A DNA stretch of 64,000 nucleotides from Escherichia coli (GTDB taxonomy: Bacteria; Pseudomonadota; Gammaproteobacteria; Enterobacterales; Enterobacteriaceae). This document shows positions 1-23,979 of this stretch, piece by piece. The stretch is from the NCBI RefSeq assembly GCF_013122565.1, contig NZ_CP053258.1, one strand, 5' to 3'. The position numbers and the translations under genes were made by a program. A model generated the notes under the pieces. It ran no database searches. It worked only from the letters and a program-made list of their open reading frames with translations, and was not told the origin of the DNA. Position 1 is the first letter of the stretch, and each line of letters begins with the position of its first letter.

Positions 1-3000
1 CTTTGCCGTATCTTCTGCCACGGCGGTAATGGTCACCGTCACTGGCTTCATTTCGTACCCGCCATAGGTCAGGGCGTTAAATGTGAACGTATAGACACCA
101 GGCTTGCTGGTACTAAATGTACGCGTGATTTTTCCGCTCACGAAATGGTCATTTTTCGACGGCAGGAACTGATAATCCTTCTCCGTCACCCCTTCCGGCG
201 TCTGAATGTCGACCCACATATTCCCCCCAACGGGGTTGTTTGCCGACATCAGTGTCACCTCCAGCTTCGCAGTCGATTTCCCATCCGCCACCAGAGATTG
301 CACATCAGATGATGCGGTGAGTACCGCATTTTTATCATCCGCGACGAATTTAGATTCGGCAGTTTTCGTCGATACCTGACCGTTGTTCTGACTCACTTGC
401 GCCGTGAGTGTATATGTCGCCGCAACAGTAGTGGTAGCGGTGAAAATAGCCTGCCCTTGCTCATTCGTTGTCGCAGTGCCATTCGGTTCCAGGTTTAACG
501 AAGCCGGGCTGGCAGTCAGCGTCACTTCGCTATCTTTCAACAGGTTGTTATTGGCATCAGTCACCGTAACTTTATACGTTTGTTTGGCTTTGCCGTCCGC
601 CAGCGCATAGTTGCCAATCACCTCAATACCGGAGACGGTTGCGGTAGCCTTATCGGCTACAAACGTTATAGTCTGCGTATTCGAAGGCTGGCTATTCCCT
701 GCCGATGCCGTGATCTCATACGTTCCGGCAGTCACTGAAACCACCTGCAACTCTGCTTTCCCCTCATCGTTGGCTTTCACCCAGACATTATCGCCTGTAA
801 GCGGCTTGACACCCCGGGGCAGATTAAAGGTCACCAGGCTCCCTGGAACAGGGTTACCATTTTTATCCTCAACGGTCGCCGTCAGCGTAAAGGCATCTTT
901 GCCGTTTGCCACTTTTTGAACGGCGGTGTCTACCTGCAGGTTTGCCTGACCGGTGCTGGCATCCGCGTTGAATTTCACCGTGACCGTCTTCTGAGCACCA
1001 TTCACCGAAGCGGAAATATTGTGTTCTCCCGCAACCGTTGACATAAGCTCAATGTCCACTTTCCCTGCCGCATTGGTTGTTACTGTATTCCCCGTCTTGC
1101 TGGTCACACCCTGCGGTAAAGTCAGCGTAACTTCTTGCCCCTGCAACGGGTTACCATAGCTGTCCACGACGGTCAGGGTTATCTGGTTAGCAGACTGTCC
1201 ATTAGCCAGTTGGTTATTAACCTTCACTGTCATATCACGAATATCAGCCTGAGAAGCGTCCCCTGCAACGTTCAGCACCAGTGGCTGAGCAACAGCATTT
1301 TGGCCGTTCACTCGCGGCATCACAGACAACTGACCCGCAGCCGATCCCAGCGTTAAGGTCGCCACGTAGACCCCATTACCTTTCTCTGTCCAGTTTCCTG
1401 CTGAAGGACGCTCACTCCCCGTGCTGGCGGCACCGCTAAACACTGGTGCATCTGGCTTCAGCCCGGTGACCGGGTTCCCGTACGCATCCTTCACGGTGAA
1501 GGTGAGTTCCGTCGTCGTTTTGACGGTCGGAGCCTTATTGTCCGCAACAAGCGTAGAGTTCGCTGATGACATCTCTCCGGCGATGACCGTCAACTGCGCG
1601 GCTTCGGTGGCTGCTGGCTGGCCGTTGAAGAGCGGCATGACACGAAGCTCGCCCGTCTTTCCGCCTGTAGTCAACGTAGCAACATAGGAACCGTCACCTT
1701 TTTCGGTCCAACTGGAAACGGTCGCCCCTTCAGAGGCGGTCCCCGTCAAACTTGCCGACAACGCAAGACCACTGATAGCGTTGCCATGCGCATCTTTCGC
1801 CACCAGCATCACGGTTGTGCTTTCGCCGGCTTTTACGTGATCTTCTGCGACAGAGACTTTCGACTGGTTTGAAGATAACGCATCAGCCACCACGGTTACT
1901 TTTGCCGCATTTGCTGCCGCATCCTGTCCATTTAGCTTCGGCATAACTTCTAATTCACCCGCCGTAGAGCCGAGAGTAATCTGCGCAGTCCACGTCCCAT
2001 CACCATTATTTGTCCAGCCCGATGCCGTAGAACCTACAGCAGCGGCACCCGCTAATGACGGCGCTTCCGGCGTGAGGCTGGTCACAGGGTTGTCATAGGC
2101 ATCTTTTACCGTCCAGATTGCCGTAACTGTACCCCCAACCACCGGTTTATCAGGATTCAGGGTGATGGACGAATGTGCTGCATCAAGCGGCCCGGCAACA
2201 AACTTCAGCGTTTGTTGTAATGTGCCCAGCTGATACTGCTCGCTGAAGGCACGCACAACAACATTTCCTGCGCGAGTCGAAGAAACCGTAGCGCTGTAAA
2301 CCCCTGGTTTTATTTCCGAAATGGCACCAACGGTAACACCATTAATGTCTTGCGGAACAAGTCGCAGGCGGCTGGCTTCTCCCGTCACCGGATTACCCTC
2401 GGAGTCCACCGCAGTCAACGTCAACGTATAGGCTTGCTGACCATCAGCAACCACGTCACCTGACGGCTCGTTAGCGCTCAGGGTGGAGTTTGCCACATCC
2501 ATCATCGTGGCCCGCAGTTCTGCAGTGACGGTTTTGCTCATGCCATCAACGCTAACAGTAATCGTTGCCTCACCTGACTGCGTTCCGGTAGTAAAGACAG
2601 ACTGATACACCCCTGCTTCAGTTTCGGTGAACTCACCCAGTGTTGGCTTTGCCTGTGATTTAGTGGACTTCAGGGAACGAGTCACAATATTTCCAGCCGG
2701 TTTGAAGGCTAGTTCAGTCTTGATCTGATCTTTCATGCCCGTGACTGGCTGGCCCTCGGCGTCGCGCAGAGACAGCACCAGCGGTCTTTGCTCATTACCG
2801 TTAGCAAGCATTTGAATACGGCTCTGACCGTCAAGCGTTAACGCCGTGCGATCGGCACTCATACCTGCTCCGGTAATGACCACCTCTGTCTGCACGCGTT
2901 TTGAGGCATTGCCTTTGTTATCGTAGGCAACCGCAGAAATCGCATAATAATTGTCTTTGCCTGCCTGGTAAGCCGGGAGCGTCACTTGCCACTGATTACC

Positions 3001-4233
3001 CTGCCCCGTAATTTTTCCGCCTGCGGCCAGCAAAGACGGCGCTTCCCATTGAACATTTTTCAGACCGTGAGTTGCTTTACTCACCACAAGCCCCAGGGAA
3101 ACCGTCTGCCCGCCCTTGCCTTCAATACGTTCAGGCAGAGCAATACGGATCACTTCAGATTTGCGGTACTCAAGAACGATGTTGTTATTACGCTCAACCA
3201 GGTCATAGCGGCTGCCTGCCAGCATTCGACGCTCGCGAATGCTGTCTGTATCGAGTTGTTTTTGCAGAGGTTCGCCAATCCGATAATTAACTTCCAGGCC
3301 AAAGCGAGTGTCATTCTCACCACTCTTGCCCTGCTTATGCCCGGCACTCAGGGTCAGAAGAGGCACTGGCGTATAGGTCACCTCGGCAGAAATAGCATGC
3401 GGGTCTTTCTGGCGTTTATCTTTACCAAACAGCCCGACTTCATCGCCATAATACTGTTCATACATCAGGCTTGCGCCAAGCTGCGGCCAGGCGGGTAAAT
3501 AGCCCTCAGCACGAATATCCCAGCCATTCGCCGGGCGTTCCTGATAATCCTCAACATCCGGCGATTTTTTCCAGCCAGAAGCCCGGATATAACCATTGGC
3601 GCTCAGTTTCAAATAATCACGCCAGTATTCCGCACCAACACCAATGCGGGTATGACTACGGGATAAATCATGGTCGATAAAGGTGTTCACCCCCGCCATC
3701 CAGTCATTTCCTGAAAAATGACGCCAGCCAAAACCAATATTTGACTGAGTGCGATCATCTGTACGATGTATTGCCCCCTGAGTGAACAACATATTTGTCG
3801 GCGTATCATAAATAGGATAAAGCATTTCCAGAGAAGAATCCTTCAGCGAGAAATCTTTATCGACATTGAGTTTGACGCGCGCAGTACCGTATTTCCCGAG
3901 CCACTCCTGTATTTCCTGGTTAGCTTTAGCGGTGGCCATTCCGGTAATAAAGTTACGTGTCGCATCGCTATCTGGCTGACTGCTTAAAAAATTCCCAGCA
4001 TTTGCGGCAAACGACGCGACATTTTTCTCCACATTATTATCAGCAGCTACTGTGGTATTTTCCATGCTCAACCGTGGCTGAACCGCATGCTGCGCGCGTG
4101 CCGCCATTACTGGGGTAAAGGTGACCGCGAGTGGAAAAAGAACCTGAACAGAGATATTTGCCCACGCCACACAGCGGGCCAGAACTGAATAACGAAATCG
4201 TGGTTGTTTATGACCTGTTTTATAACGCGACAT
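1..4233 (-). CDS. eaeH: Intimin/invasin-like inverse-autotransporter adhesin with tandem bacterial Ig-like (Big) domains (EaeH/FdeC-like); start ATG at 4233-4231, 3' end runs off the window (>=1411 codons in window)
   Basis: Hand translation of minus strand from ATG at 4233 (AGGAAA RBS ~10 nt upstream) gives MSRYKTGHKQPRFRYSVLARCVAWANISVQVLFPLAVTF... then a beta-barrel-like region (GFGWRHFSGNDWMAGVNTFIDHD...) and many ~100-aa repeats of the type ...TLTVVDSYGNPLQGQEVTLTLPQG.... The ORF track omits it because it has no stop in the window. Frame continuity to position 1 was not checked codon by codon. Confidence 0.8.
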   Translation of the reverse strand, partial: MSRYKTGHKQPRFRYSVLARCVAWANISVQVLFPLAVTFTPVMAARAQHAVQPRLSMENTTVAADNNVEKNVASFAANAGNFLSSQPDSDATRNFITGMATAKANQEIQEWLGKYGTARVKLNVDKDFSLKDSSLEMLYPIYDTPTNMLFTQGAIHRTDDRTQSNIGFGWRHFSGNDWMAGVNTFIDHDLSRSHTRIGVGAEYWRDYLKLSANGYIRASGWKKSPDVEDYQERPANGWDIRAEGYLPAWPQLGASLMYEQYYGDEVGLFGKDKRQKDPHAISAEVTYTPVPLLTLSAGHKQGKSGENDTRFGLEVNYRIGEPLQKQLDTDSIRERRMLAGSRYDLVERNNNIVLEYRKSEVIRIALPERIEGKGGQTVSLGLVVSKATHGLKNVQWEAPSLLAAGGKITGQGNQWQVTLPAYQAGKDNYYAISAVAYDNKGNASKRVQTEVVITGAGMSADRTALTLDGQSRIQMLANGNEQRPLVLSLRDAEGQPVTGMKDQIKTELAFKPAGNIVTRSLKSTKSQAKPTLGEFTETEAGVYQSVFTTGTQSGEATITVSVDGMSKTVTAELRATMMDVANSTLSANEPSGDVVADGQQAYTLTLTAVDSEGNPVTGEASRLRLVPQDINGVTVGAISEIKPGVYSATVSSTRAGNVVVRAFSEQYQLGTLQQTLKFVAGPLDAAHSSITLNPDKPVVGGTVTAIWTVKDAYDNPVTSLTPEAPSLAGAAAVGSTASGWTNNGDGTWTAQITLGSTAGELEVMPKLNGQDAAANAAKVTVVADALSSNQSKVSVAEDHVKAGESTTVMLVAKDAHGNAISGLALSASLTGTASEGATVSSWTEKGDGSYVATLTTGGKTGELRVMPLFNGQPAATEAAQLTVIAGEMSSANSTLVADNKAPTVKTTTELTFTVKDAYGNPVTGLKPDAPVFSGAASTGSERPSAGNWTEKGNGVYVATLTLGSAAGQLSVMPRVNGQNAVAQPLVLNVAGDASQADIRDMTVKVNNQLANGQSANQITLTVVDSYGNPLQGQEVTLTLPQGVTSKTGNTVTTNAAGKVDIELMSTVAGEHNISASVNGAQKTVTVKFNADASTGQANLQVDTAVQKVANGKDAFTLTATVEDKNGNPVPGSLVTFNLPRGVKPLTGDNVWVKANDEGKAELQVVSVTAGTYEITASAGNSQPSNTQTITFVADKATATVSGIEVIGNYALADGKAKQTYKVTVTDANNNLLKDSEVTLTASPASLNLEPNGTATTNEQGQAIFTATTTVAATYTLTAQVSQNNGQVSTKTAESKFVADDKNAVLTASSDVQSLVADGKSTAKLEVTLMSANNPVGGNMWVDIQTPEGVTEKDYQFLPSKNDHFVSGKITRTFSTSKPGVYTFTFNALTYGGYEMKPVTVTITAVAEDTAK

Positions 4234-5128
4234 TGAGATAATTTCCTGATGAACGAATTAACGAACATATGCAGACACAAATAATGGCGTCTGCTTGTCA
4301 GAAAAACCGGGAATTTCCCGGTTTCCTTTTCCGCAGAAAAGGAAATACCTTTATGTAAGAAAGTGCACCGCCACCTAATATATTCAGTGTCTGTAGCCAC
4401 TCATCAGGTGGTTGGGCGCGGGATTATATTTTTATTTATGGGTGAAAATTTAGCTTTTTGTGCAAGTCATTAAAGTATGATTGTCACACTATATTCTCCG
4501 TTTAAATACAGTGAATATATTTTTATTTAAAGTGAATAATGATGTTCTGCTTTTAGTGACCACGATTAGAATTACGCCTAAAGAGGTATATGTTCATAAT
4601 AAGCCAATATTTTTTAAGGGTATTTATTTTCTTTCATCGGGCTATAAAATCCCGAAATATCGGATTTGCACAGCACCGATCAACAGTGCTTAAGCAGGCG
4701 GGTGCTGTTTACGACCAGGATAGTTAAGATAATATCCGGGAAAAGTTGGACATCAGCCCTGTAGAACCTGAATAAGTTCGCCTGACTTTACATAATCATG
4801 AACCGCGTTTTCGGAGCCACAGGCGGTACCAAAGTAAAAGGCTGGTGATGGGTACCTTTAGCCGAATCAGGTAGAAGTCATGAAATTCCCCCCTTAATCC
4901 ACAGCGTGTTCCTGAACTAACCATTCCGGATAGACTATTGGATCAAATTCAGGCATCGAAAGGAACAGGCTGTTTCCCGTTAAGGGATTAATTATCTATT
5001 TTCCTTAATAGATAACTGATGTAATACCTCTATTCAAATTTGTGATACATGTCAAAAAATTGGTTGACCAAACTCGTTATTTATATAAGGACACTTACGA
5101 AGTGCATTTTTAAAGCGAGGAAGTACCA

Positions 5129-5230
5129 ATGAAAGAGAATAAAGTACAGCAAATCAGTCATAAACTGATCAATATCGTTGTTTTTGTTGCAATAGTAGAA
5201 TACGCCTATTTATTTCTCCATTTCTATTAA
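5129..5230 (+). CDS. Small hydrophobic 33-aa protein (MKENKVQQISHKLINIVVFVAIVEYAYLFLHFY), predicted single-TM small membrane protein
   Basis: ATG preceded by GAGGAAG 8 nt upstream; polar N-terminus followed by one hydrophobic helix; inside an AT-rich intergenic region. Resembles the class of small membrane proteins annotated in the E. coli ykg region (possibly ykgR-like, from memory only). Confidence 0.4.
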   Translation: MKENKVQQISHKLINIVVFVAIVEYAYLFLHFY

Positions 5231-5290
5231 TAACGGCAATAAACTGTTCACTTTAGTGATATTTAAAATATGCATCCTTTTTCTGCTTTT

Positions 5291-5320
5291 CAAGCTGTTC
5301 AAGCTGTTCAAGCTGTTCAG
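5291..5320. repeat. Tandem repeat, 3.3 copies of the 9-bp unit CAAGCTGTT
   Basis: caagctgtt caagctgtt caagctgtt cag read directly in the AT-rich spacer. Confidence 0.9.
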
Positions 5321-5657
5321 CGGCGTAAGAGAAAGTATTGAGTATGAATTCGACGATTTAACCATATCTGTTTGATTGGTAATCATCCGTGATTAATGCT
5401 GGTCTATTGATTACGCCAGCATTAACCGCTTAGGGATGTATTCTTCCTGTTCATATACAGCCCTCGAAAAAGAGAGCAAATAAAACTGTGTCCAATATTA
5501 CTCTACCACTCCAGACCGAAGTATCGGTAGAATTAGCAGAACGGCTGGTACAGTAGATTGGGATAGCGTCATTTGTCAGGCATTCCATTGCCATAATAAT
5601 AATTATGAATCAATAGACGTGCTTCTTGATCATGTCTTAAAAATTATACCACGAGCC

Positions 5658-5888
5658 TTATGAAGCATCATTTTTACTGACTGGTGTTAACTTTGCTATC
5701 ATATAAACTCTGTTCTTAAAAAACGCGCCCAGAATTTTATATGATTTTCCTTGTTTTTCTGCCTGTAAAGAAATTTCTTTTTCAGTGCTGTCAATGGTTG
5801 AACCGACGGCAGTAATCGTTTTGGCGACGCTACTGAAAGATAATAAAGACAGTGTCATCACAACAATTAAAGAACAGATAGTATTCAT
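5658..5888 (-). CDS. Small secreted protein, DUF1471/YhcN-like (signal peptide + ~55-aa mature domain)
   Basis: ORF track 5658..5930; internal Met gives MNTICSLIVVMTLSLLSFSSVA (signal-peptide-like) then ...AEKQGKSYKILGAFFKNRVYMIAKL, matching the pattern of YahO/YjfY-type small periplasmic stress proteins. Start chosen at the internal Met; the printed sequence and ORF track appear to disagree by 1 nt here. Confidence 0.4.
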   Translation of the reverse strand: MNTICSLIVVMTLSLLSFSSVAKTITAVGSTIDSTEKEISLQAEKQGKSYKILGAFFKNRVYMIAKLTPVSKNDAS

Positions 5889-6103
5889 GCTAATTCTCCT
5901 GACAATTGAGAGGATGAGTTTTATATACATAGATATTAAACATGAGTCATATTTACTCCAAGAGAAAATACCCCTTCTGTAATTAAACCTTCATCTCCTT
6001 CGGAATGAGTAATGCATAATATAATGCATCTTGCTATGCAAAACAGTGGATATAAATTTTCCTCCCGACCTATTTAATAAAACGTGAATGTAAAAGTTAT
6101 TCT

Positions 6104-6841
6104 TCAGTTTGCAGATGCAGTGGGTCTGATGGTAATTTCGGTTGTATCAACGCTTTCGGGCGATTCAATAATATGCCTTACAGCACGGGCAATATCCGCA
6201 GGTTGAAGTGCAACAGAACGGTAGACATCCATTGCCTTCATGGTTTCCACATGGGTAATGGTTGAAGCCAGTTCACTTTCGACAACGCCAGGATTTACGC
6301 ATGTCACACGGATTTTCGAGCTTTCCTGCCGTAAGCCATCAGAAATAGCCCTTACTGCAAATTTTGATGCGCAATAGACTGCGCCTGTGGGCACAACAGA
6401 AAGGGCACCAATAGAACCAAGATTGATTATCTGACCGGAACCCTGTGCTTCCATCACCGGAAGTACAGCGCCAATTCCCCAAAGTACACCTTTGATATTC
6501 ACGTCTATAGTGAGCTCCCATTCATCCTGTTTTCCTGCTGCAAGCGGTGAAAGCGGCATAACGCCCGCATTATTGATAAGAACATCAACTCGCCCCCAGC
6601 TATCCAGCGCTGCTTGCACGAAATCGGCCATGGACTGTCGGTTTGTGACATCCAACTCCCGCGCTTTAGCAATTCCTCCTGCGCGGCAGATTTCGGTTGC
6701 AATGGCTTCGATACGCTCAACTCTGCGTGCGCCCAGTAAAACCTTTGCACCTGTCGTTCCCAGCGCTCTGGCAATACCTTCCCCAATACCACTTGATGCG
6801 CCGGTAATTAATATGACCTTATCCATTACGTTCTCCTTCAA
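6104..6841 (-). CDS. Short-chain dehydrogenase/reductase (classical SDR)
   Basis: ITGASSGIG Rossmann motif near N-terminus, NNAG, YCASK catalytic motif; 245 aa (alternative start at MDKVILITG). Confidence 0.85.
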   Translation of the reverse strand: MKENVMDKVILITGASSGIGEGIARALGTTGAKVLLGARRVERIEAIATEICRAGGIAKARELDVTNRQSMADFVQAALDSWGRVDVLINNAGVMPLSPLAAGKQDEWELTIDVNIKGVLWGIGAVLPVMEAQGSGQIINLGSIGALSVVPTGAVYCASKFAVRAISDGLRQESSKIRVTCVNPGVVESELASTITHVETMKAMDVYRSVALQPADIARAVRHIIESPESVDTTEITIRPTASAN

Positions 6842-6924
6842 ATGTGTTCGGAGAGAGAATAGAACTTTATGATTGGTTCCAGTATCCTGCTTTCAATGTA
6901 CTCAGTGGTTAGCGGCATTAAACA

Positions 6925-7824
6925 ATGAAAATCGATCTTAATCTTTTACCCATTTTTATCGCGGTAGCAGAAGAGAGTAATTTTAGTAAAGCCGCCGCAC
7001 GACTGGGCGTTACCCGTTCAGCGGTCAGTCAGGGAATAAGACGCCTTGAAGATGCATTCGGGACAATGCTTGTAATGCGGACCACGCGCTCAGTTAATTT
7101 GACGGAAGCGGGAGAACGGCTGCATAAATCGTTGTCATTACCTTTATCCGGTATTGAGGCAACGTTCGAAGAGATGGTTTCTGACCATGTGCCACGCGGA
7201 CTTCTCAGAATCGCGGTGACGTCGATAGCAGAAGAATTTCTTTCAGGTCCGCTAATCGCTTCGTTTGCAGCTGCCAATCCAGCCGTTACGCTTGATATTG
7301 TTGTAACGGATGAGGAATTCGATATCGTGGCCGCAGGTTACGATGCTGGCGTAAGGCTCGGAGAGGTCATTGAAAAAGACATGATTGCTGTGCCCATTAC
7401 CGGCAGGCAGCGTGAAATGGTCGTTGCCTCTCCCTCCTATCTCGCAGCCAACAGCACTCCTGTTCATCCGCGTGAACTTGTGAATCATAAGTGTATCGGC
7501 TGGCGTCAGTCCCCGGAGGTTGCGCCTTATCGCTGGCCATTTGAAGAAAACGGGAGAGCTTTCGACCTTGCGATTGAACCGCAGATTACGACTAATGATC
7601 TGCGTCTGATGTTGCGGCTGGCTCTTGCCGGTGGAGGAATAACAATTGCCACTCAGGAAACTTTCAGGCCGTATATTGAAAGCGGTAAGCTTGTATCGCT
7701 GCTTGATGACTTTCTTCCACAATTTCCGGGCTTCTATCTGTATTTCCCACAGCGTCGCAATATTGCACCAAAGCTCCGCGCCCTGATTGACCACGTCAAA
7801 GAATGGCGGCAGCAATTGACTTAA
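6925..7824 (+). CDS. LysR-family transcriptional regulator, divergent from the SDR gene
   Basis: N-terminal HTH (LNLLPIFIAVAEESNFSKAAARLGVTRSAVSQGIRRLE), 299 aa, LysR substrate-binding-like C-terminus; divergent 83-bp intergenic region with the SDR gene. Confidence 0.9.
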   Translation: MKIDLNLLPIFIAVAEESNFSKAAARLGVTRSAVSQGIRRLEDAFGTMLVMRTTRSVNLTEAGERLHKSLSLPLSGIEATFEEMVSDHVPRGLLRIAVTSIAEEFLSGPLIASFAAANPAVTLDIVVTDEEFDIVAAGYDAGVRLGEVIEKDMIAVPITGRQREMVVASPSYLAANSTPVHPRELVNHKCIGWRQSPEVAPYRWPFEENGRAFDLAIEPQITTNDLRLMLRLALAGGGITIATQETFRPYIESGKLVSLLDDFLPQFPGFYLYFPQRRNIAPKLRALIDHVKEWRQQLT

Positions 7825-8389
7825 ATGTCTGCACCTGCACGGCCTGATGTCAGAACAATATTTTGATGAATTGCCTACACCAGCTAGCCGCAGCACATTC
7901 TTGCATACGACATGTCTGCGGTTTACTTTTCACGCTCAAACCTTATGGTAAAGCACAATAATGATCCCCAGGGCTATATAAATGTTTTGTAATTAGCTCT
8001 TAAGACGAACTTTTCAGACTAACTTCTTTATTCATCCATAATGAAGACTGTATTAGGAAGTTCTCTAAAAACATGAATAACCACTGTCTTACAATGAATT
8101 TAGTTTACAGAACATTCTTATTGAGAAAAAACAACACTGTACACACCCAATAATATAGAAATGTAAATTTAAGTTTATTAATCTTTTGAATTATAATCAT
8201 AACTTTCTGTTAACCATTAGAATATCAATAGATTATAATCACTGAACACACATTTTTATAATTGCTATTCCCACACTCAAAATGCGCATCCCAATATCTT
8301 ATTTGACACTTTGTTGTTTGCTACTAGAGTTAATTGGGTGCTGACAAGGCACATGTTATTTACAAATTGGAAATCAGAGGAGAAATGAT

Positions 8390-8572
8390 ATGACCGAACA
8401 TCGTGGCGGTGCAGGTAATTTCGCTGAAGATCGACAAAAAGCTTCTGACGCAGGTCGTAAAGGTGGCCAACAAAGTGGTGGTAATTTTAAAAACGATCCA
8501 CAAAGAGCATCAGAAGCAGGGAAAAAAGGTGGTCAGAATAGCCATGGCGGCGGTCGTAAATCTGACTCTTAA
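8390..8572 (+). CDS. yciG: YciG/YmdF-like KGG-repeat general stress protein
   Basis: 60 aa, repeated GG..K...A.EAG.KGGQ motifs (RKGGQQSGGNF, KKGGQNSHGGGRK); preceded by 560 bp of AT-rich non-coding DNA; RBS GGAGAA. Confidence 0.8.
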   Translation: MTEHRGGAGNFAEDRQKASDAGRKGGQQSGGNFKNDPQRASEAGKKGGQNSHGGGRKSDS

Positions 8573-8645
8573 TTTTTCATCTCCCTAAATTCGTGAATAA
8601 CTGCAGCTAACTGCGAGCCTACGGGCTCGCAGGGACAACTCTGGA

Positions 8646-9152
8646 GTGATTATGCAAATTAAATCTGTTGAAGATATCTTCATCCATTTATTATCTGACA
8701 CATATAGTGCTGAGAAACAACTAACCAAGGCACTATCTAAACTTACTCGCTCCGCATATAGTGATAAATTAACCGCTGCTTTTCAGTCACATCTTGATGA
8801 GACACATGGTCAAATTGAACGCATCGACCAGGTTGTTGATTCTGAAGATGGTATTAAACTAAAAAGAATTAAGTGCGCCGCAATGGAAGGCCTTATTGAA
8901 GAGGCGAATGAGGTAATTGAAAGCACTGACAAAAATGAAATACGTGATGCTGCGTTGATTGCAGCAGCACAAAAAGTAGAACACTATGAAATTGCCAGTT
9001 ATGGCACCCTGGTAACACTTGCTGAGCAATTAGGATTTAAAAAAGCGGCTCAACTCCTGAAAGAAACTCTGGAAGAGGAAAAAGCTACTGATGTCAAATT
9101 AACAGACCTGGCATTTAATAATGTTAATAAAAAAGCTCAGGATAACTCCTGA
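8646..9152 (+). CDS. yciF: YciF-like DUF892 ferritin-like stress protein
   Basis: 168 aa; paralogous to the next gene; operon order yciG-yciF-yciE as in the known yciGFE(-katN) stress operon. Confidence 0.8.
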   Translation: MIMQIKSVEDIFIHLLSDTYSAEKQLTKALSKLTRSAYSDKLTAAFQSHLDETHGQIERIDQVVDSEDGIKLKRIKCAAMEGLIEEANEVIESTDKNEIRDAALIAAAQKVEHYEIASYGTLVTLAEQLGFKKAAQLLKETLEEEKATDVKLTDLAFNNVNKKAQDNS

Positions 9153-9186
9153 ACTATAGACTTCACTTTTTTAGGAGAAATATATT

Positions 9187-9693
9187 ATGAATAGCATTGA
9201 ACATTATCATGACTGGCTTCGTGACGCACACGCAATGGAGAAACAAGCGGAATCAATGTTGGAGTCTATGGCCAGCAGGATAGAAAACTATCCTGAGTTA
9301 CGTTCCAGAATTGAGCAGCACATTAGCGAAACAAAGAACCAGCTTTCACAGCTTGAAAGCATACTTGATCGTAATAATATTTCTCGCTCTGTCATTAAAG
9401 ACTCTATGAGTAAAATGGCCGCGTTTGGGCAATCTATTGGTGGAATTTTTCCATCTGATGAAATTGTCAAAGGTTCGATCAGTGGCTATGTTTTTGAACA
9501 ATTTGAAATTGCGTGCTACACATCTCTTCTCGCAGCAGCCAAAAATGCGGGTGATACAGCTTCAGTACCAATTATTGAAGCAATTCTTAATGAAGAAAAA
9601 CAAATGGCTGAATGGCTTCTTAACCATATTCCAGACACCACTGAGCAGTTTATGGTCAGATCTGAAATTGATGGCGCTGAAGCAAAAAAATAA
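9187..9693 (+). CDS. yciE: YciE-like DUF892 ferritin-like stress protein
   Basis: 168 aa, MNSIEHYHDWLRDAHAMEKQAESMLESMASRIENYPEL...; tight spacing to flanking genes. Confidence 0.8.
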   Translation: MNSIEHYHDWLRDAHAMEKQAESMLESMASRIENYPELRSRIEQHISETKNQLSQLESILDRNNISRSVIKDSMSKMAAFGQSIGGIFPSDEIVKGSISGYVFEQFEIACYTSLLAAAKNAGDTASVPIIEAILNEEKQMAEWLLNHIPDTTEQFMVRSEIDGAEAKK

Positions 9694-9711
9694 TTCTTTA
9701 GAGGAGGAATT

Positions 9712-10602
9712 ATGTTTAGACACGTGAAAAAACTTCAATATACAGTACGTGTAAGTGAACCAAACCCAGGCTTAGCTAATCTACTTTTAGAACAATTCGG
9801 CGGCCCACAGGGTGAGCTTGCAGCTGCATGCCGATACTTCACTCAAGGTTTAAGTGATGAAGATGCAGGTCGAAGGGATATGCTGATGGACATAGCAACA
9901 GAAGAACTAAGCCATCTCGAAATTATTGGTTCTCTTGTTGGTATGCTCAACAAAGGTGCAAAAGGAGCACTCGCTGAAGGAACTGAGAATGAAGCGGAGC
10001 TTTACCGTTCCTTAACTCAAAATGGCAATGACAGCCATATAACTTCTCTTCTCTACGGAGGAGGCCCAGCATTAACTAATTCAGCTGGAGTACCCTGGAC
10101 TGCAGCTTATGTTGATACTATTGGCGAAGTCACAGCCGATCTTCGTTCAAATATTGCAGCTGAAGCTCGTGCAAAGATCATTTACGAGCGTCTCATTAAT
10201 GTTACTGATGATCCTGGAGTGAAAGACACTCTGGCATTTTTAATGACCAGGGAAGCAGCACATATGCTTTCTTTTGAAAAAGCATTACATTCAATTCGTA
10301 ACACTTTTCCACCAGGAAAATTACCACCGATTGAGAAGTACAAAAACGTATATTACAACATGTCAGAAGGTGAAGATGTCAGAGGTAGTTGGAACAGTGA
10401 TGAAAACTTTGATTATGTTTCCGATCCAGTTCCAGCTGTTGACGGTGGGGATGGGAAGGCCTCGATAATTCTTTCGACCAAGCAAGAAGCTATGATAAAA
10501 GCTATGGCAACAAGGTTGAAATCCCATGAAGATATCAATCCTGTCACTGGCGCTGAGCTTGCTGAAGGAGAGCCACAAACAAAGGTAAATAGTAAAAACT
10601 AA
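9712..10602 (+). CDS. Manganese (non-haem) catalase, KatN-like
   Basis: 296 aa, ferritin-like di-metal fold with EELSHLEIIG and REAAH motifs typical of Mn catalases; fourth gene of a yciGFE-katN-type arrangement (known from Salmonella). Confidence 0.8.
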   Translation: MFRHVKKLQYTVRVSEPNPGLANLLLEQFGGPQGELAAACRYFTQGLSDEDAGRRDMLMDIATEELSHLEIIGSLVGMLNKGAKGALAEGTENEAELYRSLTQNGNDSHITSLLYGGGPALTNSAGVPWTAAYVDTIGEVTADLRSNIAAEARAKIIYERLINVTDDPGVKDTLAFLMTREAAHMLSFEKALHSIRNTFPPGKLPPIEKYKNVYYNMSEGEDVRGSWNSDENFDYVSDPVPAVDGGDGKASIILSTKQEAMIKAMATRLKSHEDINPVTGAELAEGEPQTKVNSKN

Positions 10603-10692
10603 TTATCTTCTGGTATTTAGCTATCTCTCATAAATTTTAATGGCCGCAGAGATATCCTAAGCTCTAGCCACTGAAAATACATTTATATTTCG

Positions 10693-10727
10693 AAGCCCGC
10701 GATATTATAAGCGGGCTTTTATTTTAA
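10693..10727 (+). terminator. Rho-independent terminator after the Mn-catalase gene
   Basis: AAGCCCGC-gatattataa-GCGGGCTT followed by TTATTTT. Confidence 0.6.
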
Positions 10728-11050
10728 CCTTCTGGTATTACAGGCCACTCAATATCCGGTGCTACTGATGGCTCAACACGATTCAACAACATCCGATATG
10801 TCTTCCATGCGGCCATTCAACATTTCGCAGAAATGCAACTAAGAGACATTACTGAATCAAAAATTTATTCAGCAATGCAGAAAATGACGAACCGGCGTCA
10901 TGAGGAAAACTGGAAACTCAGGGCAGAAGCATGCAGAAAAAAGGGAAACCTGTTCCAGAATACACGCCAAACCCAGCGTCTGTTGCAACGAAGGCTACGC
11001 ATCTTTCATTTATAAAAGCCCTGCTAAGAGCCGCAGAGCGTGAATAGAAA

Positions 11051-11718
11051 ATGCTGGATAAGGCACCAATTATTAAAGTGCCTCAACCGAAGAATAAACG
11101 GATCCGCTGGCTGGAACCTCATGAAGCACAAAGGCTGATTGATGAATGTCCGGATCCATTAAAGTCTGTTGTTGAATTTGCACTGGCAACAGGTTTAAGA
11201 CGCTCGAACATCATCAACCTTGAATGGCAACAAATAGACATGCAGCGCCGGGTGGCCTGGATAAACCCGGAAGAGAGTAAATCAAACTGCGCGATTTGCG
11301 TTGCGCTGAATGATACTGCATGTCGAGTATTGAAAAAACAAATCGGGAATCACACCGTTGGGTATTTGTGTAAAAGGAAAGCTGTACAAAACCAGACGGA
11401 ACGAAAGCGCCAACAGTCAGGAAGATGCAGTATGACGCAAACACAGCCAGGAAAACGGCGCTGAGACGAGCTGGTATTGATGATTTCAGATTTCACGACT
11501 TGAGACACACCTGGGCAAGTTGGCTGGTTCAAGCCGGAGTCCCGTTGTCAGTGTTACAGGAAATGGGAGGCTGGGAGTCTATCGAAATGGTTCGACAATA
11601 TGCTCACCTCGCACCTAATCACCTTACCGAACACGCACGGCAAATAGACTCGATCCTAAACCCATCGGTCCCAAATTTGTCCCAGTCAAAAAATAAGGAA
11701 GGTACTAACGATGTGTAA
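11051..11718 (+). pseudogene. Tyrosine-recombinase (phage integrase) remnant: catalytic C-terminal half only, with a frameshift near 11425-11464
   Basis: Two overlapping frames (11051..11464 and 11425..11718) together give an integrase catalytic domain ([19 protein letters not shown]...; [39 protein letters not shown]); N-terminal ~200 aa absent; ends 15 bp from the tRNA 3' end in convergent orientation. Confidence 0.7.
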
Positions 11719-11732
11719 CTTATTGATTTAAA

Positions 11733-11808
11733 TGGTGCCGATAAGAGGAGTCGAACCTCCGACCTTCGCATTACGAATGCGCTGCTCTACCAACTGAGCT
11801 ATATCGGC
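11733..11808 (-). tRNA. thrW: tRNA-Thr (anticodon CGU)
   Basis: Minus-strand sequence GCCGATATAGCTCAGTTGGTAGAGCAGCGCATTCGTAATGCGAAGGTCGGAGGTTCGACTCCTCTTATCGGCACCA folds as a canonical cloverleaf with CGT anticodon and CCA end. Confidence 0.95.
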
Positions 11809-11922
11809 CCTGAAAGGACATGTTCACGAACGTGAATCACGGTGGACAAGGTTAAAACTAACCGGGCGATGCGTCAATGGCCTTGTGAATCAAATGGCTA
11901 CTTTTGCATCACCCGGTTTTAT

Positions 11923-13176
11923 TTACGCACGAATGGTGTAATCACCAATGCCGATCCACTTGTAAGTGGTCAGTGCTTCCAGCCCCATTGGGCCACGCGC
12001 GTGGAGTTTTTGTGTGCTTACCGCCACTTCCGCACCCAGACCAAACTGGCCGCCGTCGGTAAAACGCGTAGAGGCGTTAACGTAAACAGCGGACGAATCC
12101 ACTTCGTTAACAAAACGCTGGGCGTTGCGCATATCGCGGGTCAGGATCGCATCGGAGTGTTGTGTGCCGTGTTCACGAATATGGGCGATGGCATCGTCAA
12201 GATCGCTGACGATTTTGACGTTCAAATCTAATGACAGAAACTCATCGTCATACTCTTCGGCTTTAACCGCCACCACCTTCGCGGGGCCTGTCTGCAACTG
12301 CGCCAGCGCAGCAGCATCTGCGTGTAACGTCACGCCGCTTTCCGCCATTTGCTTGCTTAATGCGGGCAGGAAGCTATCGGCGATGTTTTTATTTACCAGC
12401 AACGTTTCTACCGTATTACATGTGCTCGGACGCTGAGTTTTCGCGTTGACGATCACTTTTAATGCTTCAGCGATCTCTGCACTTTCATCAACGTAAATAT
12501 GGCATACGCCTATACCACCAGTGATCACCGGGATTGTCGACTGTTCGCGGCACAGTTTATGCAAACCAGCGCCACCACGCGGGATCAGCATGTCGATGTA
12601 TTTATCCATACGCAGCATTTCACTGACCAGCGCACGGTCAGGATTATCAATCGCCTGCACGGCACCCGCCGGTAAGCCACAGGATTTCAGGGCGTCCTGA
12701 ATCACCGCCACCGTTGCCGCGTTAGTGCGACAGGTTTCTTTGCCACCACGCAGGATCACCGCATTACCGGTTTTCAGGCACAGCGAAGCGACATCAACCG
12801 TCACGTTCGGGCGCGCTTCATAAATCACGCCAATAACCCCCAGCGGTACGCGACGACGCTCAAGACGCAGGCCGCTGTCCAGTACGCCGCCATCGATTAC
12901 CTGCCCCACCGGATCGGCGAGATTGCACACCTGGCGCACATCGTCGGCAATGCCTTTCAGCCGTGCGGGCGTCAGTGCCAGACGGTCAAGCATCGCTTCG
13001 CTAAGGCCATTGGCACGCGCGTCAGCAACATCCTGGGCGTTAGCGTTGAGGATGATTTCGCTTTGTGCTTCCAGTTCATCGGCGATTTTTTCCAGCACGC
13101 GATTTTTTTCGCGGCTGGAGAGTTGCGCTAATTTATACGAGGCTTGCTTCGCGGCAATGCCCATTTGTTCCAGCAT
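11923..13176 (-). CDS. proA: Gamma-glutamyl phosphate reductase
   Basis: 417 aa full-length match to ProA by recollection ([38 protein letters not shown]...); 11-bp spacing from proB. Confidence 0.95.
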
Positions 13177-23343: not shown

Positions 23344-23979
23344 TTAACGCGTTCGCTGCGAAAGCACCTGCTGCTTATCCAGCTTTTGCACCAGTGGCTG
23401 CACCACTTTATCCCCATGCTGACCAAAGTATTGATACAGCGTATCGGACGCACTTTTGGTCAGCACCATAATCTCAATACGCCGATTGCCCGCACTTTGC
23501 GGATTTTTCGCGTCCAGCAGCATCTGGTCCGCCATTGCGCTTACCTGCATCACTTTATCTTCCGGCATTCCTGCCTCTTCCAACACCCGACGAGCCGAAA
23601 GCGCGCGGTCACCCGAAAGGTTCCAGTTGTTGTAGATATTGTTTTTGTAAGCCATCGCATCGGTATGCCCGGTAATAATAATTTTGTTATCGAGCGAGTC
23701 GAACACTGGCGCGAGCTCCACCAGCAAAGTTTTAAAGAACGGCATAATCTGCGCGCTGCCGCGTTCGAACATATTGCGGTTCTGGTCGTCTTTAATCAGC
23801 ACGCGTAATCCCTGCGGGACAATCTCCATCTCCAGATTCGCTTCCATATGCGCATCACGGGCAATGGTGTTGATACTGGTTGCCAGCTCGCCAAGCTCGG
23901 TGGCGGATTTCTTCTTCAGCAGCGCCGTATTCTCGTTGACGTCGCGCGCTTTTTTCTCCGTCTCTTCCGGCACCGCCAC
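23344..23979 (-). pseudogene. lafU: lafU' remnant: MotB-like flagellar motor protein with OmpA-like C-terminal domain, 5'-truncated (Flag-2 deletion scar); upstream boundary approximate
   Basis: C-terminal OmpA/MotB peptidoglycan-binding domain (ITGHTDAMAYKNNIYNNWNLSGDRALSARRVLEEAGM...NRRIEIMVL); N-terminal part of the 296-aa ORF lacks a MotB-like TM segment. Confidence 0.65.

Follow-up and report, generated by a model that had tools for sequence, protein, structure and literature searches.

The 64,000-nucleotide stretch of Escherichia coli DNA analysed here (contig NZ_CP053258.1; the window in what follows) holds a single tRNA gene, found by ARAGORN as tRNA-Thr(CGT) at 11733-11808 on the minus strand, intact and matching Rfam RF00005 with 71 bits. 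As proA (11923-13176, minus strand) and, beyond it, proB lie to its right, this tRNA gene is thrW. To its left, and convergent with it, lies a tyrosine recombinase pseudogene (10816-11718, plus strand), identified by tblastn, PF00589 and nucleotide alignment, which corresponds to codons 87-387 of a 387-codon integrase gene (int). Its stop codon (11716-11718) is separated from the tRNA 3' end by a spacer of 14 nt (CTTATTGATTTAAA, 11719-11732, as read from the sequence), in keeping with an earlier note on this DNA that had placed a degenerate integrase against thrW in convergent orientation, 15 bp from the tRNA 3' end. The note had let the integrase begin at 10740; positions 10724-10815, however, belong to the opposite strand and hold the end of a tail fibre assembly gene (tfa), and further to the left follow an intergenic stretch and an operon of four genes that includes a manganese catalase gene. 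The whole architecture was found in 2 of 5,426 complete E. coli genomes, 6EVA and wlxctx60, with the same gene order and both junctions. PGAP lists int in these two as 'site-specific integrase; frameshifted; internal stop; incomplete' and tfa as 'tail fiber assembly protein; incomplete'.

With the intact 387-amino-acid integrase of E. coli O103 as query, tblastn of the whole window gave three collinear pieces in three reading frames, i.e., codons 87-130 (10815-10946), codons 127-266 (10934-11353) and codons 267-387 (11353-11715), with a joint E value of 2e-164 and about 96% amino acid identity, and no further integrase matches elsewhere in the 64 kb. Aligned base by base with the intact gene, the remnant has 29 substitutions in 903 aligned bases (96.8% nucleotide identity) and ten amino acid replacements. 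Homology starts at 10816, codons 1-86 being absent, so that the N-terminal arm-binding and core-binding domains are not complete; 78% of the gene is retained with 86 codons gone at the 5' end, which is more than the catalytic half that had been thought to remain. It had also been described as split by a frameshift, which is correct but understates the damage, as there are, besides the truncation, two 1-bp deletions and two in-frame stop codons (all given for the plus strand). The first deletion shortens an A7 run to A6 (10936-10937), and this change and the stop codon W164* (TGG to TAG, 11045-11047) are specific to the window, the A7 run being retained in wlxctx60, the one remnant genome with which lesions were compared base by base. 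The second deletion turns AATCATCACC into AATCACACC (11352-11353) and is, like the truncation and the stop codon Y273* (TAC to TAA in the ancestral frame, 11371-11373), common to the window and wlxctx60; frameshift 2 therefore predates the split of the two genomes.

Re-translation gave no intact integrase ORF, the longest being of 137 aa (11051-11464) and 97 aa (11425-11718). The family was assigned by HMM, as the earlier note had proposed: after repair of the frame the remnant matches PF00589 with E=7.2e-45 and 153 bits (cut-off 27.1) over profile positions 1-171 of 172, and it also matches PHROG integrase families. The catalytic codons R215 (11198), H314 (11494), R317 (11503), W340 (11572) and Y349 (11599) are all retained, and K242 (11279) is tentatively taken as the active-site lysine. 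R215 and K242 are, however, in one frame and H314, R317, W340 and Y349 in another with stops between them, so that no single frame holds the active site and a functional recombinase is impossible. A residual function of the 97-aa C-terminal ORF was considered and rejected, as this ORF is without the box I arginine, the lysine and all DNA-binding domains. With its frameshifts, stops and split active site the integrase is thus, judged from the sequence, dead, as the earlier note had held. Nor was any sign of a hidden RNA gene or of a regulatory role of the int stump found in Rfam, promoter and terminator scans of the region; thrW was the sole Rfam match, and the promoter and terminator scan gave one weak terminator-like and one promoter-like site, counts at or below those of shuffled sequence.

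About 1,180 of the 5,426 complete E. coli genomes have a near-full-length copy of this int adjoining thrW, and in E. coli O103 ML775 the 387-aa gene heads a prophage-containing element of about 40 kb and ends 14 nt from thrW, a spacing identical to that in the window. At the protein level the ML775 integrase is 100% identical to that of phage SfIV, 99.5% to that of SfII, 99.2% to that of SfI and 98.5% to that of SfV, and about 90% identical to those of P22-like Salmonella phages (ST64T, L, BTP1). The homology between the Sf and P22 phages and the window runs through the 3' end of int and the spacer and ends at 11778, 46 nt into thrW. The attL core thereby comprises the 46 nt (11733-11778) that begin at the tRNA 3' end and reach the anticodon loop; it is common to the attP of SfII, SfIV, SfV, SfI and P22, and the attL/attR repeat of the O103 prophage covers the same span. 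The attP of SfIV is indeed 46 bp long, and Sf-type phages use a 46-bp attP for integration at thrW and have their conversion genes next to int-attP (PMC3851460). With a related Int and the 46-bp att core downstream of int, the dead integrase by its sequence belongs to the SfIV/P22 thrW-specific family. In SfIV the order is xis-int-attP-cargo-IS-tfa, with gtrABC between attP and tfa, which is the same cargo slot as in the window. The Sf and P22 module also agrees with the window in the 3' end of int, in the spacer of 14 nt and in the 46-nt core in thrW. The window differs in that its int is short of 86 codons at the start and is interrupted by two frameshifts and two stops, in that neither xis nor attR nor the phage body is left, and in that the cargo is a manganese catalase operon instead of the O-antigen glucosylation genes of the Sf phages. 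The excisionase of O103, used as tblastn query against the window, gave only chance matches (E>2).

In the T-stem of thrW, the U50-A64 pair of four E. coli genomes used for comparison (O103, NCTC10444, 6EVA and wlxctx60) is replaced in the window by G50-C64 (window positions 11745 and 11759), a double change that is compensatory. The change sits within the 46-nt att core and could have arisen by exchange in a past integration and excision; evidence tying the variant to a phage was sought and none found. Import with the attP of the phage is not supported: the usual U-A pair is kept in 6EVA and wlxctx60, which have the same remnant, identity to the Sf and P22 phages is lower, and in Escherichia sp. 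E1V33 and several Enterobacteriaceae it is the native thrW that has this variant. The native gene with the variant lies beside proA in E1V33 and in Citrobacter, Kluyvera, Enterobacter, Kosakonia, Trabulsiella and Superficieibacter. In Enterobacteriaceae bacterium MGYG-HGUT-00110, a contig with a full thrW (L018) also carries, at L019 1659-1705, 47 nt from the 3' part of thrW as an isolated copy that does not differ from window positions 11732-11778. This copy has the look of an attR-type repeat that belongs to a different element integrated in thrW, one with the G-C variant.

The tfa remnant (10724-10815, minus strand) consists of the last 30 codons and the stop codon, as seen with PF02413, PHROG, the junction alignment and the PGAP annotation. 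It matches PF02413 with E=7.3e-10 over profile positions 104-131 of 131 as well as PHROG tail fibre assembly families, and is a fragment, i.e., the C-terminus only, and not a gene. It is fused to int without a spare base, tfa homology extending to 10815 and int homology starting at 10816, and a 25-mer across this junction had zero matches in the GTDB species representatives. The fragment has no significant match in the thrW prophage of O103, which has a different type of tfa; its own type is present in O157 and RM13752.

The four genes of the operon are all on the plus strand and code for a con-10/YciG-like general stress protein (8390-8572, 60 aa, omega 0.053), a YciE/YciF ferroxidase-family protein (8652-9152, 166 aa, omega 0.051), a ferritin-like protein of YciE/YciF type (9187-9693, 168 aa, omega 0.056) and a manganese catalase of KatN type (9712-10602, 296 aa, known from its ORF and PGAP name, omega 0.038). 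With omega computed against O157 and lying between 0.04 and 0.06, the four cargo genes are intact and under purifying selection. For int a value of about 0.40 was obtained between two remnants; the omega estimates are based on few substitutions, here 9 synonymous and 13 non-synonymous. Between the stop codons of the catalase gene and of tfa lies an intergenic stretch of 121 bp (10603-10723) with a GC hairpin (GCCCGC at 10695-10700 and GCGGGC at 10711-10716) followed by a T-run, which is likely to be the terminator of the catalase operon and which was missed by the terminator scan because its loop is 10 nt long.

The same four genes, with about 92% nucleotide identity, are found as the KatN-type operon of EHEC O157:H7 (ECs_1652 region), followed downstream by the intergenic stretch and the end of tfa as in the window. 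The intergenic stretch is contiguous with both its neighbours there, and the catalase end, intergenic stretch and tfa end taken together are 89.6% identical to O157:H7. On the other side, the region upstream of the operon (7881-8389) is homologous to the O157 prophage from 7881 on, and the whole of 7881-10815, upstream region and tfa end included, forms one uninterrupted block in O157:H7 and RM13752 at 89-92% identity. In these strains the prophages are lambda-like and have the block at their tail end, where J, lom, stf and tfa are followed by the operon in convergent orientation. The prophages are largely complete and at another locus, that of RM13752 being in the DLP12/ompT region and that of O157 in one that contains ompT and a fragment of icd, whereas the copy in the window lies beside thrW without a phage body. 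ECs_1652 is present in nearly all ST11 genomes, and KatN is cited as a catalase secreted by T6SS (PMC9205054). The catalase operon is presumably expressed and useful.

The left junction of the foreign DNA falls at 7876-7881, backbone homology of the 3' flank of a LysR-family regulator gene (6925-7824, plus strand) reaching to about 7876, some 52 bp past the LysR stop, and cargo homology beginning at 7881. The junction is short of about 75 bp of backbone and of the attR repeat when compared with the empty site of E. coli NCTC10444 and with attR of O103, which repeats 46-47 nt from the 3' part of thrW at 127 bp past a LysR remnant (L003:20211). In agreement with this, no second copy of the thrW 3' end was found in the window by a 25-nt pattern with up to 3 mismatches or by blastn-short with thrW and its flanks, nor in a direct-repeat scan of positions 1-12000. 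The junction alignments show that it is the deletion of attR, and not a position to the left of the window, where a search had been suggested, that makes the searches negative. The first 47 or so nucleotides of the cargo region (7878-7924) recur with 87% identity in the thrW element of O103 (L003 about 23525-23570), in an accessory region between a DinI fragment and a DUF262 gene, and this stretch may be a recurrent module boundary of lambdoid accessory regions.

Taken together, the approximately 3.9 kb from about 7877 to 11732, with truncated int, truncated tfa and cargo, are very probably the immobile stump of a lambdoid prophage that was integrated in thrW and had an integrase of SfIV/P22 type. 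In the orientation of the window, the ancestral map would have been LysR, attR, manganese catalase cargo, tfa and late genes (minus strand), early genes, xis, int (plus strand), attL/thrW. Following integration into thrW by means of the SfIV/P22-type integrase and the 46-bp thrW core, an internal deletion would have joined codon 87 of int to the last 30 codons of tfa (10815/10816) and taken nearly all of the phage with it, xis as well as the N-terminal part of Int that binds DNA, while a deletion at the far end would have removed attR and about 75 bp of chromosomal flank (junction at about 7876-7881). The int stump would then have decayed neutrally through two 1-bp deletions, two stop codons and amino acid replacements, the four cargo genes meanwhile having been kept intact by purifying selection. 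The derivation of int and the tfa-cargo piece from one prophage, as well as the order of the deletions, is what we infer from these data. On balance we also lean towards the KatN-type operon of manganese catalase, YciE/YciF and con-10 genes having arrived as lysogenic-conversion cargo of the thrW-integrating lambdoid phage and having been locked in by the deletions.

There is some small chance that one prophage supplied the int stump and another the tfa-catalase block, the two being later joined by deletion or recombination, for example from tandem lysogens at thrW or by recombination with a DLP12-like prophage. The tfa-catalase block has been seen only in lambda-like prophages with siphovirus tails at other loci; the intact int of O103 is on a prophage whose tail module is of another, Mu-like kind and whose tfa is unlike the fragment in the window; and no genome was found with an intact thrW prophage carrying both this int and the catalase cargo. 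RM13752 looked promising by coordinate as such a precursor and was rejected, its prophage being in the DLP12/ompT region. Against two sources it counts that Int/att modules shuffle freely among lambdoid phages, the same Int being present in Sf and P22-like phages, that int, tfa and cargo are oriented exactly as on a single lambda-type prophage map, and that one deletion is simpler than two integrations and a deletion. On either account, int and the tfa-catalase block are both phage debris.

The earlier note had read the locus as the eroded boundary of a larger island that comprised the catalase cluster, the LysR and SDR genes and an adhesin gene. The boundary itself stands, as the attL edge of foreign DNA, but the foreign DNA extends only over about 7877-11732, and it is very improbable that a large thrW island with this integrase as its recombinase ever held all these genes. 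They do all lie on the side of thrW away from proA, G+C is low (35-46%) over 4000-6500 and 7500-11500, and the interval from thrW to ykgR is occupied by other genes (pao, ecp, ykgMO) in genomes of K-12 type. The unoccupied site of NCTC10444, however, reads ykgR'-hyp-SDR-LysR-126 bp-thrW-proA with no integrase and no insertion, and as this empty site keeps SDR and LysR, the genes LysR, SDR, ykgR and fdeC are chromosomal backbone; LysR in the window is thus chromosomal flank outside the element. Furthermore, the C-terminal part of LysR occurs with 97-98% identity in several thousand E. coli genomes and is, in most E. coli, the only fragment of the gene that is kept, fdeC and ykgR occur also in O103, no direct repeat bounds such an island, and the integrase is the phage Int of SfIV/P22 fused to a tail fibre assembly fragment. 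Practically no weight can be given to an intact or nearly intact integrase with frameshifts due to sequencing or assembly errors, since, although the 1-bp loss in the A7 homopolymer is confined to the window and of a type typical of some platforms, the loss of 86 codons together with the fusion to tfa, the 1-bp deletion at 11352-11353 and Y273* recur in independently assembled complete sequence and W164* is a substitution and not a homopolymer error.

The backbone to the left of the element has features of its own. The interval from thrW to ykgR/fdeC (4300-7900) is without the paoABCD, yagU, ykgJ, ecpRABCDE and ykgL/O/M block of O103, as are 6EVA and wlxctx60, and has in its place the intact LysR gene, the SDR oxidoreductase gene and a small hypothetical gene. 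A stretch of low G+C (35-40%) between fdeC and SDR (4300-6100) is the most divergent from 6EVA and wlxctx60, with 92.4% identity and 34 gap positions, and a tandem repeat of three 9-bp units (GCTGTTCAA) is found at 5285-5319. The adhesin gene is fdeC (inverse autotransporter; window 1-4233, minus strand), which is cut by the left end of the window and which, at about 94.4% identity to 6EVA and wlxctx60 and 92.7% to O103, is more divergent than the surrounding core genes.

The identity between the window and 6EVA and wlxctx60 is 98.0-98.1% for the cargo operon, 97.3-97.5% for the int stump, 98.0% for SDR-LysR and 98.0-98.5% from thrW to pepD. The remnant would thus have been inherited vertically, as cargo and int are at the level of the backbone, which indicates descent of all three copies from a common ancestor. 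That the element is fixed, as the earlier note had supposed, is likewise supported: a functional int, xis and attR are all missing, which should make the remnant immobile, and both junctions are also present in 6EVA and wlxctx60.

Reduced prophages at this site are not without precedent. In E. coli K-12 the defective prophage CP4-6 uses the same tRNA target, thrW. It differs from the window in content and integrase and has no DNA in common with it beyond thrW, in line with the earlier note's remark on the different island content; K-12-lineage records match the query only at its positions 1124-1251, which are thrW and the flank on the proA side. In Shigella, the SHI-O islands are cryptic remnants of serotype-converting prophages at proAB/thrW in which int and gtr cargo are kept. 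Site, integrase type and outcome, a few kb of int and conversion cargo left after loss of the remaining prophage, are presumably the same as here, the two being likened by description. The SHI-O remnants would be the closest described analogues of the window's element, the differences being that SHI-O, at 4.6 kb and located at proAB/thrW, has GtrABV as cargo (PMC7545054), whereas the window has the catalase, YciE/YciF and con-10 genes, a truncated int and no IS element in the remnant.

The locus is thus a case of ordinary genome decay within known kinds of element, with a pseudogene already annotated in two public genomes, and its significance beyond annotation is slight. For annotation, the foreign DNA at thrW is bounded at about 3.9 kb and is not the whole region to the left of thrW, and island cargo should be taken not to include LysR, SDR and FdeC. 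The stranded KatN-type manganese catalase operon, which in EHEC is reported as an effector secreted by T6SS and is here under purifying selection, illustrates how phage morons turn into chromosomal genes. If the operon did arrive as cargo of the thrW phage, the locus would show cleanly, in nature, how a prophage is cut down to its cargo, and would do so in an E. coli lineage that is rare and has no pao-ecp-ykgMO block between thrW and ykgR.
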